From: an uncultured Bacilli bacterium
GTDB taxonomy: Bacteria > Bacillota_I > Bacilli_A > RF39 > UBA660
NCBI GenBank assembly: GCA_944363735.1
Contig: CALVVB010000063.1
Location: 11,296 to 75,295 of the forward strand
DNA: 64,000 nt
Direction of reading: 5' to 3'
This document shows, in pieces, positions 16,536-21,580 of this stretch (positions within the stretch are counted from its first letter, which is position 1; every line of letters begins with the position of its first letter). Both the position numbers and the translations under genes were made by a program. Below the pieces are notes generated by a model. The model was not told the DNA's origin. It made no database searches and saw only the letters and a program-made list of their open reading frames with translations.

Positions 16536-17441
16536 CTACATTAACATTGTTATTTGACTTTTAGAAAGACCTGTCGCTTTAACTATATCTTTTATAGGCA
16601 TACCTATTTTAAGAAGATTTTTAGCGATAGATTTTTTCTCATTACTAGCACCTTGTTCAATGCCTATCTTAACTCCTTTTTCTTCAGCAGTATTTATTTT
16701 AGTATTCTCTATTCTTCTTCTTTCCTCTTCTTCATCATATAAACCTATTGTATTAATGTCATAAGTTAAATTTTTTAGTTCATTTGTAACTTCCATTAAC
16801 TCTTCATCTCCTTTCGCTATCTTCTCTATTTCACTAATCTCCTTTAGTGTTAATATTAATAACTCTTTCTCTAATTTATTTAAGGTTAAGCCTCTTTTAT
16901 ACTTTTCTCTTATTAGTTTTAAATTAATATAAAACTTTCCCCATTTATCACTTTCTATTATTCCATACTTATCTCTTGATTTAAATTCTAAAAGATTCTC
17001 TCCACTTAAGAAACAATAAAAGTTATTTATATTTATCTGTATTACTTTAGGTAACTTATTATAACTATCTGTCTTTCTTAATAAATCATTTTTTATCTTA
17101 CCTAAATAAGCATCATTACGTTCAATTAATCCATCCCATTTTCTCCCATTAAACTTATAATTAATAACATAGCCATCTATATCAAAAAGAACATCTGATA
17201 CTTTCCCTTTTTCTAAAGCATTATCTATTTTATATTCTGTATTTTTCTCTTGATAAGTATTTAGTATCAACTCTTTAGGTATACCTGTTATTCTAGAGGT
17301 TAAATCTGCCCTAAACTTAGGGCATTTATCCATAATTGCTTTAAAAACACCATCATAGGTTGCAGGTACTATCTCTTTCTTTTTATCTAATTCTTTTTTT
17401 ATTTGTTCAAATCTTTGTTGTGTTATAGCCAATAGACTCAC
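16536..17441 (-). CDS. Rpn-family recombination-promoting nuclease/putative transposase (PD-(D/E)xK)
   Basis: Length, the N-terminal D..FK.IM pattern and a C-terminal helical repeat region resemble YhgA/Rpn proteins (from memory). A TTGACA-N17-TACATT promoter lies upstream. Confidence 0.55.
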   Translation of the reverse strand: MSLLAITQQRFEQIKKELDKKKEIVPATYDGVFKAIMDKCPKFRADLTSRITGIPKELILNTYQEKNTEYKIDNALEKGKVSDVLFDIDGYVINYKFNGRKWDGLIERNDAYLGKIKNDLLRKTDSYNKLPKVIQININNFYCFLSGENLLEFKSRDKYGIIESDKWGKFYINLKLIREKYKRGLTLNKLEKELLILTLKEISEIEKIAKGDEELMEVTNELKNLTYDINTIGLYDEEEERRRIENTKINTAEEKGVKIGIEQGASNEKKSIAKNLLKIGMPIKDIVKATGLSKSQITMLM

Positions 17442-17695: not shown

Positions 17696-18637
17696 TTATT
17701 TGAAACAATATTTTATATTCTTCTTCAGTAATATTCTCCTAGTCTTACTAACAATTCTTCTCTTAATTTTATTATTCTTAACCTTATAATTAATACCTAG
17801 AAAAGTAAAACCTTCAGTACTTCTATATATTTTAGTTTTATTATTAAATTCTAATAGATATTCTCTTTTTATAATAGATTCTAATATTCTTAAAATATCT
17901 TTTAGTCTTTCTTTATTACTATCTAAAATAATACCATCGTCCATATATCTAATATAGTATTTATAATCTAACTTTTCTTTAATAAAGTGATCTAAGTCAT
18001 TAAGGTAAAACACTGCAAGAAACTGAGATGTATAGTTACCTATTGGAAGTCCTGTATCTTTCTTATAGAAAGTATCCATACCTAATCTTTCAATATTATT
18101 ATTTATATAATCATAATTAGTAGTATTTAATATTTCTTTAATTAATAATAAATCTTCATTACTTAGATATTTACTTAATTTATTAAGTAATACTTTATGA
18201 TTAATATTATAAAAGTATTTACTAAAATCAAATTTAAGGATATAAAAAGTACTAGATTTATTTTTAATTTTAATAAGATATTTATCTAACAAATATCTTG
18301 CATAAGAAGTGTCTTTACCTACTCTAGTAGCACAGTTACTATCTATTAAGTATTTATCTAAAGGTAATAGAACTTTCTTACAGATGATATGATTAACTAT
18401 CTTATCTTCTAGGGTACTACTCATAATAAGTCTTTTCTTTTTCTCTGTTATTGTAAAGATATGATAATTATTATAAGTATAGTTACCACTATTAATTTTA
18501 TCTACTAAGATATTACAATTACTATAATAATTCTTTTCAAAAAGATATAATTTCTTCTTATTTCTAATAGATTTTCTTATCTTTAAATAAGCATCTTCTA
18601 TATCACTTAACTCTACTTTCACTTTTAATCCATCCAT
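17696..18637 (-). CDS. DGR reverse transcriptase
   Basis: Catalytic YMDDGII and LPIGNYTSQ (the IGxxxSQ motif characteristic of DGR RTs). About 313 aa. Adjacent to the TR/VR repeats. Confidence 0.9.
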   Translation of the reverse strand: MDGLKVKVELSDIEDAYLKIRKSIRNKKKLYLFEKNYYSNCNILVDKINSGNYTYNNYHIFTITEKKKRLIMSSTLEDKIVNHIICKKVLLPLDKYLIDSNCATRVGKDTSYARYLLDKYLIKIKNKSSTFYILKFDFSKYFYNINHKVLLNKLSKYLSNEDLLLIKEILNTTNYDYINNNIERLGMDTFYKKDTGLPIGNYTSQFLAVFYLNDLDHFIKEKLDYKYYIRYMDDGIILDSNKERLKDILRILESIIKREYLLEFNNKTKIYRSTEGFTFLGINYKVKNNKIKRRIVSKTRRILLKKNIKYCFK

Positions 18638-18947
18638 ATATTAATTTAGTAATAGTAATATATTTCTTACTTATAGATATATACTTATCTTTAGATATTT
18701 CTTTATAAGTATATAGTTTATAATAGTAATAATCTAATAATTTAACTTCTATTAACATTTTTCTTTGAATATAAATTCTTTTAGATCTTTCTAATGTATT
18801 AGTATAATATAAATAATAAAGTAATTTATAATTAGAATCTATTATATTATTCTTGAGCGTTTTATATTTATTATTTATATTAAGAATTATTTTATCAGTA
18901 ATAATATCTATTTCTTTAAGTTTATTTTCTAAAACAAAGTTACTCAT
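18603..18947 (-). CDS. avd: Avd-like accessory variability determinant (four-helix-bundle candidate)
   Basis: 114 aa, basic, helical-looking, immediately upstream of and overlapping the RT gene. No motif-level proof. Confidence 0.55.
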   Translation of the reverse strand: MSNFVLENKLKEIDIITDKIILNINNKYKTLKNNIIDSNYKLLYYLYYTNTLERSKRIYIQRKMLIEVKLLDYYYYKLYTYKEISKDKYISISKKYITITKLIYGWIKSESRVK

Positions 18948-19278
18948 AGAACTTCTCCATTTTTGTTATAATTTCTTCAATATTATCTAGATATAAACAA
19001 TTCTTTAAATTAGTAGATAGTTTATCTATTCTATAAGACAACTTACCATACTCTACATATTTAGAATATTTATTATCTTTAAAGGTAACAACATCATCAT
19101 AGAAATAGTTAATATGACATTTATTTAATAGAGATATTATTTTATTAAGAGAATTTCTTTCTATATAAAATGTTTCTCTATAAGGTTTATCTAATAAATA
19201 ACTAATAATATAACTATCATTTTTAGTTACATAAATCATTAGTCCTTTACGCATAAAATATACCAAACTATCATTCAT
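18940..19278 (-). CDS. hypothetical protein, first gene of the DGR accessory operon
   Basis: 112-aa ORF with RBS aggagag, overlapping the avd-like start by 8 nt. No recognisable family. Confidence 0.55.
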   Translation of the reverse strand: MNDSLVYFMRKGLMIYVTKNDSYIISYLLDKPYRETFYIERNSLNKIISLLNKCHINYFYDDVVTFKDNKYSKYVEYGKLSYRIDKLSTNLKNCLYLDNIEEIITKMEKFYE

Positions 19279-19306: not shown

Positions 19307-19336
19307 ATTTTACAAAAAAAAAAAAAAAAACGTCAA
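19307..19336 (-). promoter_or_regulatory. sigma-A-like promoter TTGACG-(T17 G)-TAAAAT for the orf112-avd-RT operon
   Basis: Minus strand reads TTGACG tttttttttttttttttg TAAAAT, about 25 nt upstream of the RBS and ATG at 19278. The 18-nt spacer is almost entirely a T17 homopolymer. Confidence 0.6.
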
Positions 19337-19349
19337 GCGATTTTGACGT
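19314..19349 (-). terminator. intrinsic terminator ending the target-gene/TR transcript
   Basis: Minus strand reads acgtcaa-aatcgc-ttgacgt (7-bp stem) followed by a T-run. The T17 tract is 19314-19330. Confidence 0.7.
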
Positions 19350-19528
19350 AAAAATTAGGACTAACCTTTCCTTTATTTTTATAGGGTCAGATAGTGTATA
19401 AATAGTTTCATAAATATTTACAATTCTATTATCTATCTAGTCTTTAGTGTTATTAACACAAGGAAATTACCTGTTCCTTTTATCTATTCTATATAGACTT
19501 ATCTATAATGCTAGGTTTAAAAGGAAAT

Positions 19529-19613
19529 GCCGCACACTGTTCGTGTTCGAAGGACTATTGTTGTTCGTGTTACCAGTGTTGTTGACGTTACGCACGTTAG
19601 ACGTACTGTTGGT
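19529..19613 (-). repeat. DGR template repeat (TR)
   Basis: In the VR frame the minus strand reads aac agt acg tct aac gtg cgt aac gtc aac aac act ggt aac acg aac aac aat agt cct tcg aac acg aac agt gtg cgg c (10 AAC codons). It lies in a non-coding position and is homologous to two segments of the upstream gene. Confidence 0.85.
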
Positions 19614-19665
19614 AATTCCCTACTATAATTTATTTAATCTAATTAATTATAGCCTAACTTAATTA

Positions 19666-19703
19666 GTCAGGAATCTAGGAAATACATTCCCTAGATTCCT
19701 GAC
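19666..19703 (-). promoter_or_regulatory. perfect 14-bp-stem hairpin 2 nt after the target stop codon
   Basis: gtcaggaatctagg / cctagattcctgac with a 10-nt loop and no U-tract. Confidence 0.6.
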
Positions 19704-19705
19704 AC

Positions 19706-21580
19706 CTAACTACCTAGAGAAAGAACAAACGGATCGGATTTAGTACCTGTTCCTGAGGTTATCTCGACGTTAGATTTTAGATTTATTGATGGCCGCACAC
19801 CGTACAGGCGCGAAGGACTATTGCTGCTCGTGTCACCAGTGTAGCCGACGTAACGCACGTTAAACGAAGAGTATGGTGTTAAGGTCCAATAAGATGTTGT
19901 TAAACCTGTACTAGTACTTCCTCCTTTAACTGAATATCTTTCAAATTGTCCTGACATCAATTCTCCCATTCGTAGTAATCCTACTTTAGCATCTGTAGTA
20001 GATGAAGTTAAACTACTCATATTGTTGTCTGTATACTTGGCTAGTTTATATGAAGTACCACTTCCTACTGTTCCTAAATACCATGTTGTACTATCTTCTA
20101 TCATTGAACTATAACTACTACCCACGTAATTTGTTAGATAATTTCCATTTAAGAATGTACCTATTGTATTGGTACTTGAAAATGTTGTATTACTTCCAAA
20201 GGCGCTTGTTATAAACGTATCAGAATTCTTTAACGGTTCGGCACTTACTATCTTTGTACCTGTTCCATTTTCATGGCTTACTATTCTATATAGATTATTT
20301 TCGCCACTTCCAAATCTTATATATTCTCCACTATATCTACTTGAAAGTAGTGTTCCCGTGAGGTCTGTATCATTATCTCCATTCAAGCGATAAGGGTTAT
20401 CTGCTGTACCATAGCCATCTACAATTTTAACGCTGGATTTTAGATTTATTGATGGCCGCACACCGTACAGGCTCGAAGGAATATCGTAGTTCGTGTGACC
20501 AGAGTAGGTGACGTTACGTACGTAAGACGCACTGTATGGCGTTAAAGTCCACCAATAAAGTCCATTATTTAAATAACCATTACTATACGTTGTTTCATGA
20601 TAACTAGATTGATATTCATACATATTTAGTAAACCTACTGGTGCTGTTACAGTTGCCTCCCCATTTGGTCTTGTTATACTTCCTAAACTAGTTGCATCAA
20701 GTGTTGCATCCCATACTGCATCTGTTACAATGAACTTCTCATAATCTCTTAAGTTACCAAGAAAGCCATCTACTGTTGTATCATTGAGCCAATCTTCCAT
20801 ATAACTTCCTTCAAAAGCTGTATTACCACTTGCATTATATGTAGTTGCACTTATATTCCATTGTGTTACTAACTTAACTGTCTTTGCTTCATTATTTACA
20901 GATACTGCTCTCCAAAGTTTTCCACTATACCATATATAGTTATTAGGATCTTCTCCTGTTATGAAGGTATCAACTCCATCATCATATTGATTTTCCTTTG
21001 GTATATTATTAAGTAGAGCATTAGATACTGTAACGCCTTGTTCTCTATCATAACTTGTTACTACTATCTTACTCTTATATTCTTTACCTTGTGCACTATT
21101 ATCAGCATTATAATCTAACCACATCCATAATTGATATGTTACTTTATCACTTGGTTTTAATGTCGCTTCACTAGTTATATCAAATGAACCTGTTCCATAA
21201 CCACTAACCTTTACTACTCCACTATCATATCCATTATCTCCTGTTAGCCTCATCTTTAAATAAGAATTTGGTAAGGTATTATTAACATCTTCTTCTAATG
21301 ATACATGATAATATGCATTTATATTACCTGTATTAGTTATAGTAAAAGTATAAGGTGTAGTCTTTTGACCTTGTGCATCTGTCATAGGTGCTACATTATC
21401 TAAATTAATATTATTTCCTTCAGCAAAATCAACTTTTAATATCCCTGCTGTTAAACTAACTTTTTTATCTCCTTCTAAAGTCATTGTAAGTAAAGCATAA
21501 CTTGCCCCTGCTAAAACTATAACACTTATTACAATCGTTACTATTACTAATGCAATATATTTTTTTCTTGATTTATCCAT
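19706..21580 (-). CDS. DGR target protein, membrane-anchored, with two tandem VR-bearing modules
   Basis: N-terminal TM segment (YIALVIVTIVISVIVLAGA). Two modules end in ...WWTLTPYS..(VR)..LYGVRPSINLKS, and each contains a TR-homologous segment. Confidence 0.85.
   Translation of the reverse strand: MDKSRKKYIALVIVTIVISVIVLAGASYALLTMTLEGDKKVSLTAGILKVDFAEGNNINLDNVAPMTDAQGQKTTPYTFTITNTGNINAYYHVSLEEDVNNTLPNSYLKMRLTGDNGYDSGVVKVSGYGTGSFDITSEATLKPSDKVTYQLWMWLDYNADNSAQGKEYKSKIVVTSYDREQGVTVSNALLNNIPKENQYDDGVDTFITGEDPNNYIWYSGKLWRAVSVNNEAKTVKLVTQWNISATTYNASGNTAFEGSYMEDWLNDTTVDGFLGNLRDYEKFIVTDAVWDATLDATSLGSITRPNGEATVTAPVGLLNMYEYQSSYHETTYSNGYLNNGLYWWTLTPYSASYVRNVTYSGHTNYDIPSSLYGVRPSINLKSSVKIVDGYGTADNPYRLNGDNDTDLTGTLLSSRYSGEYIRFGSGENNLYRIVSHENGTGTKIVSAEPLKNSDTFITSAFGSNTTFSSTNTIGTFLNGNYLTNYVGSSYSSMIEDSTTWYLGTVGSGTSYKLAKYTDNNMSSLTSSTTDAKVGLLRMGELMSGQFERYSVKGGSTSTGLTTSYWTLTPYSSFNVRYVGYTGDTSSNSPSRLYGVRPSINLKSNVEITSGTGTKSDPFVLSLGS
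19792..19876 (-). repeat. variable repeat VR1 (C-terminal module)
   Basis: Aligns to TR over about 82 nt. By hand alignment, 15 of 18 mismatches fall at TR adenines on the coding strand. Encodes YSSFNVRYVGYTGDTSSNSPSRLYGVR. Confidence 0.85.
20455..20539 (-). repeat. variable repeat VR2 (internal module)
   Basis: Aligns to TR over about 82 nt. By hand alignment, 13 of 16 mismatches fall at TR adenines. Encodes YSASYVRNVTYSGHTNYDIPSSLYGVR. Confidence 0.85.

Follow-up and report, generated by a model that had tools for sequence, protein, structure and literature searches.

Whether a single template repeat can supply variation to two sites of one polypeptide is the question raised by a diversity-generating retroelement (DGR) on a 64-kb stretch of the genome of an uncultured Bacilli bacterium (64,000 nucleotides of contig CALVVB010000063.1, assembly GCA_944363735.1; hereafter the window). 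The locus is a complete chromosomal DGR that comprises a target gene, a template repeat (TR) RNA, an open reading frame (ORF) of 112 amino acids (ORF112), an avd gene, as well as the gene for a reverse transcriptase (RT), all on the minus strand (-). The target of 624 aa is encoded by a single ORF (21580..19706; feature 19706..21580, -) that holds two variable repeats (VRs) of 82 nt each. VR2 is internal and lies at the end of the first of two protein modules (20455-20536, -; aa 349-376), and VR1 is C-terminal and lies at the end of the second (19792-19873, -; aa 570-597). The third repeat copy is the non-coding TR outside the target gene (82 nt, 19529-19610, -). We consider it probable that this chromosomal DGR has a single adjacent target with two VRs, that the two tandem DUF6273 modules each have one VR as their C-terminal part, and that the one TR feeds both.

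VR1 and VR2 are 79% and 81% identical to the TR, respectively. Across the 81 aligned nucleotides, of which 28 are adenines in the TR, VR1 has 17 mismatches (14 at A, 2 at C, 1 at G; binomial p = 7e-5) and VR2 has 15 (12 at A, 2 at G, 1 at C; binomial p = 4e-4). With three non-adenine mismatches per VR, the share of mismatches at TR adenines is 80-82% in both, against a cut-off of 75% for this share in Roux et al. 2021 (PMC8144416). The TR holds ten AAC codons in the VR frame, and the two VRs encode different residues at eight of these. A first-pass annotation, made from the nucleotide sequence of the window, had placed both VRs in the one 624-aa target, had found them to differ at most AAC-templated positions, and had proposed one retroelement with two VRs in one polypeptide; the first two points were confirmed, and the third is supported by the adenine-biased divergence of both VRs from the single TR. 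Its further observation of a 37-bp identity between the VRs was confirmed by exact search. The 37-mer GCCTGTACGGTGTGCGGCCATCAATAAATCTAAAATC (minus strand) is present in exactly two copies in the window, at 19773..19809 (-, VR1 copy) and 20436..20472 (-, VR2 copy); no third match with up to three mismatches was detected there, and none is expected (100 shuffles). Both copies are composed of the same three parts, namely GCCTGTAC (8 nt, mutagenised codons), GGTGTGCGGC (10-nt GC-rich core), and CATCAATAAATCTAAAATC (19-nt flank). The annotation had this stretch span the 3' end of each VR. It does close each VR, but homology to the TR is limited to its first 18 nt; the last 19 nt have no TR counterpart, the TR flank being ATTTCCTTTTAAACC. 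Seven to eight codons upstream of the TR-homologous part, the residue before a WW/YW motif (20557 and 19894 region; aa 342 and about 563) is hypervariable in the family and polymorphic among close strains; the TR aligns there only with an indel and fixed non-A mismatches.

The target combines an N-terminal signal-anchor and beta-sandwich (aa 1-190) with module 1 (about aa 196-392) and module 2 (about aa 405-606). Pfam assigns DUF6273 to module 1 (aa 250-382, E 3.6e-9, 37.2 bits versus a cut-off of 23.5), and module 2 alone scores 21.3 bits, just under this cut-off. Despite the sub-threshold score we take module 2 as DUF6273, because it is homologous to module 1 (29-37% identity over the whole length; 49% over the last 95 aa, E 2e-22) and its model has a structural match to DUF6273 proteins. 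The AlphaFold2 model of the full-length protein (mean predicted local distance difference test score, pLDDT, of 55.7) was too poor for module 2 (pLDDT <45), and its Foldseek matches concerned the N-terminal sandwich only. Module 2 predicted from an alignment mixing both module types reached a pLDDT of 67 and a predicted template-modelling (TM) score of 0.70. This model resembles predicted viral DUF6273 proteins (Foldseek, TM 0.56-0.59, E 3e-5) and also the solved IgA peptidase of Thomasclavelia ramosa (9qa6, E 1.3e-4), the N-terminal domain of which is described as DUF6273 (PMC12402451). DUF6273 is described as a C-type-lectin-like domain of phage DGR targets that carries the VR at its C-terminus (PMC10743442, PMC11792537, bioRxiv 10.1101/2024.10.15.618418). 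Foldseek returned no direct match to Mtd or TvpA, the C-type-lectin likeness being taken from PMC10743442, and a search of the Protein Data Bank (PDB) with a profile of the modules returned nothing relevant. As judged by Pfam, inter-module homology, and the module 2 model, both modules are DUF6273-type domains and each VR is predicted to close one lectin-like module, in keeping with the two C-type-lectin-like or DUF6273-like folds for which the first-pass annotation had proposed a structural check. The N-terminal region (aa 1-180; 21040-21580, -) resembles pilins (FimA) and TasA-like archaeal bundling pili according to Foldseek, with a weak match to camelysin (Peptidase_M73). The target is possibly a subunit of a fibre or a surface subunit.

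Species-representative genomes, when scanned, yielded 80 loci encoding relatives, with several paralogues per genome. Eleven distinct related cassettes from several species have a TR and an invariant spacer adjoining a two-module target, i.e., the two-VR layout is conserved across the lineage. Compared with the adjacent TR, the middle (VR-mid) and C-terminal (VR-C) repeats have adenine/non-adenine mismatches of 16/0 and 14/1 in locus L003, 13/0 and 10/1 in L049, and 18/1 and 11/0 in L076. In an alignment of 118 homologues, the consensus-less, hypervariable columns coincide with TR-templated codons in both modules. On this family evidence we infer that both VRs are DGR recipients. The two-module protein belongs to a multigene family, each genome of about 1.5 Mb having about 5-10 or more paralogues (loci L001-L080, e.g., OZ006970.1, DVHC01, CALVJB01). 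Most paralogues have many non-adenine mismatches to the available TRs, yet have kept GC-rich VR-like codons and thus look like fossil VRs. That one TR serves many paralogues is not supported, as most paralogues of the same genome differ from the available TRs at 10-30 non-adenine positions; possible exceptions, as remote targets, are the second modules of L019, L079, and L051.

By analogy to the Bordetella phage BPP-1 system, a non-coding RNA (ncRNA) of about 300 nt, composed of the TR and the structured 3' spacer, would be made from the region that separates the target from the accessory operon. The RT-Avd complex would copy the TR into cDNA with misincorporation opposite adenines, and this cDNA would replace either VR, with the 10-nt GC-rich core common to the TR and the VRs, GGNGYNCGGC, as 3' anchor and the 19-nt coding flank as likely mark of the recipient. 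The 37-nt identity would then consist of the last two mutagenised codons, which are in the same state in both VRs by happenstance, the GC core, and the 19-nt flank that has no TR equivalent and is present in nearly every module.

The TR is part of a conserved intergenic RNA region that can be aligned across 7-11 cassettes. Its 3' spacer (19330..19528, -) is near-invariant in 11 cassettes, has a fold z of -2.9, and ends in an intrinsic terminator (19330-19349, terminator scan) and a T-run. The TR 5' flank pairs with the spacer, GGGAAUUACC with GGUAAUUUCC, in a stem that encloses the TR and has one compensatory pair change, C-G to U-A, in L076; a conserved hairpin follows directly 3' of the TR. 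Outside the TR, the DGR ncRNA (19330-19650, -) is nearly invariant between species. Rfam contained no family for the TR RNA and gave chance-level matches only. A run of 17 T (minus strand) after the terminator (19314-19333) varies in length among the near-identical strains L081, L082, and L084. All thirteen other TRs examined end in AAY GGN GYN CGN C, directly followed by the invariant ATTTCCTTTTAAACCTAGC, and AGT in place of GGN is found only in the TRs of the window and its two sister strains. Because 13 of 13 other TRs have GGN, the AGT of the window TR is, by this comparison, a derived state, due to a G>A mutation in an invariant glycine codon. A second TR with spacer and 112-aa ORF, without avd or RT, is located at L041 (6826-7571) in a genome that also carries the complete cassette L008. 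The L041 TR may be an orphan template that is served in trans.

Close strains differ in how much the VRs have changed. P0003, P0004, and P0129 are alleles at one chromosomal site with identical TRs; their target genes have 13 variable sites, five in or beside the internal VR (Fisher p = 2e-5) and five in or beside the C-terminal VR (Fisher p = 5e-5). P0083 and P0086 differ in both VRs as well, and both VRs vary in two of the three lineages of near-identical alleles. The activity appears to be episodic, with adenine-site changes of both VRs in the P0003 group and in P0083/P0086. As a statement on the present, the first-pass claim that both modules can receive cDNA is weak, since the strains of the window lineage show such changes in VR2 alone.

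A series of observations weighs against transfer into both VRs, and two rival explanations draw on them. According to the first, only one VR is a live recipient in this strain and the other is a fossil with an old adenine-biased pattern, which we regard as doubtful. VR1 is unchanged at the protein level in seven near-identical strains of the window lineage, and its first codons fit another TR subtype better. Adenine-site change in VR2 is in turn seen in one strain of this lineage only, L081, which differs from the window at two AAC-templated codons and one further site in VR2 and at one non-adenine, synonymous site in VR1 (Fisher p = 0.009 for VR2 and 0.32 for VR1). Against a single live VR, non-adenine mismatches are equal in number in VR1 and VR2 and adenine mismatches are similarly frequent, the GC core and flank are intact in both, both VRs behave alike in the sister alleles and in clean cassettes, and the strain sample is tiny.

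The second rival explanation holds that in this lineage the DGR is silent or in decay, that its VRs change by ordinary mutation and inter-strain recombination, and that the 37-nt identity is a remnant of the module duplication under protein-level selection on GVRPSINLKS; we consider this quite unlikely. It can draw on the non-adenine mismatches in both VRs, because of which neither VR can have been rewritten very recently from the present TR, and on the G>A change at the invariant glycine codon of the TR, as a result of which most new cDNAs would be harmful if it were copied. VR changes in close strains are very few, and most near-identical protein pairs in the family have no VR difference. 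Codon inertia is widespread in the gene, position-specific codons being common at other conserved positions too. It also weighs against the main reading that in the strictly TR-homologous part of the P0003 group only four of six polymorphic sites are at TR adenines. In L082, moreover, VR2 was replaced via a recombination tract of 590 nt and not by retrohoming. On the other side, RT, Avd, and ORF112 are intact, with conservation between species given as 90-97%, the TR RNA region is nearly invariant, structure included, and the few VR2 changes fall on AAC codons. The modules are otherwise 29-37% identical, which argues against a perfect 37-nt match that includes variable positions being a passive remnant.

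L082 (allele P0128) had itself been a candidate for retrohoming into VR2 only, which was rejected as the change corresponds to a 590-nt tract from a P0002-like allele with many non-adenine changes. The tract (L082 4001-5875; window 19968-20557 equivalent) is about 19% divergent and takes the place of VR2 and the greater part of module 2, with VR1 left as it was. The target gene is therefore reshuffled by homologous recombination as well.

The 3' end of the repeats bears on where transfer would stop. Both VRs of the window have GGTGTGCGGC as GC core, and its TR has AGTGTGCGGC. In the family it has the form GGNGYNCGNC and is identical between the TR and both VRs in L003, L049, and L017, with VR-mid of L076 one base off. 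TR/VR homology stops at CGGC in the cleaner cassettes, and the last adenine mismatch is in the codon directly 5' of the GC core. This AAY codon reads CTT/TAT in the two VRs of L003, TAT/AAT in L049, and TAC/CTC in L076, and is also polymorphic among strains of the P0003 group (gene nt 1763). The first-pass annotation had correctly noted that the TR has ACG AAC AGT where both VRs have CTG TAC GGT, including a shared non-adenine change (C>T at TR 19543), and had interpreted this as the signature of an initiation of mutagenic homing (IMH) site in the VRs and its IMH* counterpart in the TR. This interpretation is not supported, since the AAY codon is independently mutagenised in relatives and polymorphic, and the codons of the supposed block hence lie in the mutagenised zone; the AGT is derived, and the 17-mer CTGTACGGTGTGCGGCC is confined to the window strain lineage among 89 loci. 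That the three codons are a functional IMH/IMH* block setting the 3' limit of transfer in both VRs is very improbable: all five differences in the last 9 templated nt are common to both VRs and one is non-adenine, with a chance agreement at the three unconstrained adenine sites alone of about 0.04 (estimated by us on the premise that the three substitutions are equally frequent), but fixed differences at this place are absent from all other TR/VR sets of the family, GGN and not AGT stands in every other TR, the motif is restricted to one strain lineage, and the reading is thereby contradicted at the family level. The identical VR ends, non-adenine change included, most likely reflect a short conversion tract between the repeats or shared selection, and the shared CTG-TAC-GGT, which is specific to this strain lineage, reflects the derived G>A in the TR and, probably, conversion between the VR ends.

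It is the sequence 3' of CGGC that separates VRs from TRs everywhere, with CCATCNATNAATCTAAAATCT in VRs and ATTTCCTTTTAAACC in TRs. Each of the two flanks is nearly invariant, and they can barely be aligned to each other (12 of 20 positions, with a 4-nt gap). All 22 TR-linked modules have the 12-nt core of the VR flank, AATCTAAAATCT, versus 95 of 131 unlinked paralogue modules. Codons of the flank are non-preferred and 86-98% fixed (synonymous-site test); the leucine codon CTA, for example, is used in 90% of modules versus 15% genome-wide. DNA-level constraint on the flank is only suggestive, because codon conservation is widespread elsewhere in the gene. The 3' flank is plausibly an IMH-like element, and the best candidate for what marks a VR as recipient is the 19-nt flank CATCAATAAATCTAAAATC, with ATTTCCTTTTAAACC marking the TR as donor. 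An 18-bp inverted repeat (19666..19703) is located directly after the stop codon of the target, about 90 nt 3' of the VR1 GC core, and in L049 it retains its structure with a different sequence; no inverted repeat was found within 115 nt 3' of VR2. The repeat is probably the terminator of the target gene or a DNA hairpin, and as a DNA hairpin it could be related to target recognition. We tentatively suggest, as a speculative extension, that the in-frame flank CC-ATC-NAT-NAA-TCT-AAA-ATC-T, encoding PS(I/M/L/V)NLKS, may be a sequence-specific, hairpin-independent recipient signal that would let this DGR lineage address any number of coding sites, here two per protein, and that the signal-keeping paralogues (5-10 or more per 1.5-Mb genome) may constitute a reservoir whose segments are swapped with those of the diversified copy through recombination.

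On the minus strand, the 18-bp inverted repeat is followed 3' of the target by the TR, the spacer of about 200 nt with the intrinsic terminator, and three overlapping ORFs. The DGR lies between uvrC/mutL and lepA in a genome with a G+C content of 26%, and the closest named relatives are Candidatus Onthousia, Bacilli incertae sedis. The RT (17696..18637, -; 313 aa, RVT_1, E 2.4e-20) is 90-92% identical to its counterparts in other species. RTs of the DGR clade have I/LGxxxSQ in place of the QGxxxSP of group II introns, together with YxDD, and the RT of the window has IGNYTSQ (aa 199) and YMDD (aa 231), corresponding to the DGR-type IGxxxSQ and YxDD. Its best sequence match in the PDB is a 328-aa chain named 'Reverse transcriptase' in 8ub7 (entries 8ub7-8ube, E 1.3e-18), which we take to be the bRT of the Bordetella phage. 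The Avd-like accessory protein (18603..18947, -; 114 aa) matches PHROG 3206 'Avd protein of DGR' over its full length (E 2.2e-5); the Pfam bAvd match also covers the full length and is weak and below threshold, and a sequence search of the PDB gave no relative. The accessory operon begins with ORF112 (18940..19278, -), which separates the TR RNA from avd. It is found beside every related cassette (79-92% identical), has no match in Pfam, NCBIfam, or PHROGs, and may provide this DGR lineage with a third accessory protein. A gene for an Rpn-family PD-(D/E)XK nuclease or putative transposase (16536-17441, -) directly follows the RT gene and occupies the same place in sister strains.

With the prototype BPP-1 DGR (mtd-avd-TR-brt), the window DGR shares an RT that carries I/LGxxxSQ and has Avd as its partner, AAC codons in the TR, TR/VR differences specific to adenines, repeats that are GC-rich at their 3' end and followed by different sequences in VR and TR, and a lectin-like target domain with a C-terminal VR. 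Unlike phage-borne BPP-1, it is chromosomal, has the order target, TR RNA, ORF112, avd, RT, and has two VRs in one gene. Its TR/VR homology ends right after the 10-nt GC core, in contrast to the imperfect IMH of 21 nt in BPP-1, and its VRs lack a hairpin within a few nucleotides, whereas the BPP-1-type hairpin immediately follows the IMH; the sole inverted repeat is the one about 90 nt past VR1. According to Wu et al. 2018 (PMC5758913), no more than 34% of DGRs have such inverted repeats 3' of the IMH.

Two VRs in one gene are rare and already documented. Wu et al. 2018 described a CLec1 target with three tandem FGE-sulfatase domains and three VRs, two of them internal, and pointed out that an internal IMH must suit the coding sequence (PMC5758913). 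Yan et al. 2019 listed 31 DGRs with several VRs per ORF (PMC6642488), and a survey from 2024 contained four targets with two and three targets with three VRs (PMC11661182). The window DGR resembles these in that one TR serves more than one VR in one gene and in its tandem lectin-type domains that each end in a VR; it differs from the FGE-sulfatase type in its DUF6273 domains, its host among small-genome uncultured Bacilli, and a double-VR layout found in at least 11 cassettes of several species. DUF6273 DGR targets are known from gut phages as tentaclins (PMC10743442), from Faecalibacterium prophages (PMC11792537), and from Toutatisvirus (bioRxiv 10.1101/2024.10.15.618418). They share with the window target the domain family, the position of the VR at the C-terminal end of DUF6273, and the ability of one TR to serve two VRs. 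In the phages, however, the two VRs are in two genes, whereas those of the window are in tandem domains of one cellular protein with a signal-anchor and a pilin/TasA-like N-terminus. What is new here are the combination of a tandem pair of DUF6273 modules within one cellular protein, the lineage of the host, and a double-VR layout that is conserved from species to species.

The current understanding of DGRs is unchanged by this locus. It provides a natural, cross-species example in which, on our reading, one TR feeds two sites of one polypeptide, such that two binding surfaces of a surface protein could vary independently. An internal recipient site without a nearby hairpin would narrow the candidate recipient signal to about 19 nt that are common to both sites and absent from the TR. 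If this flank indeed acts as the signal and the paralogues that keep it exchange segments with the diversified copy, a gut bacterium with a small genome would vary a surface protein both by targeted hypermutation and in cassette style.

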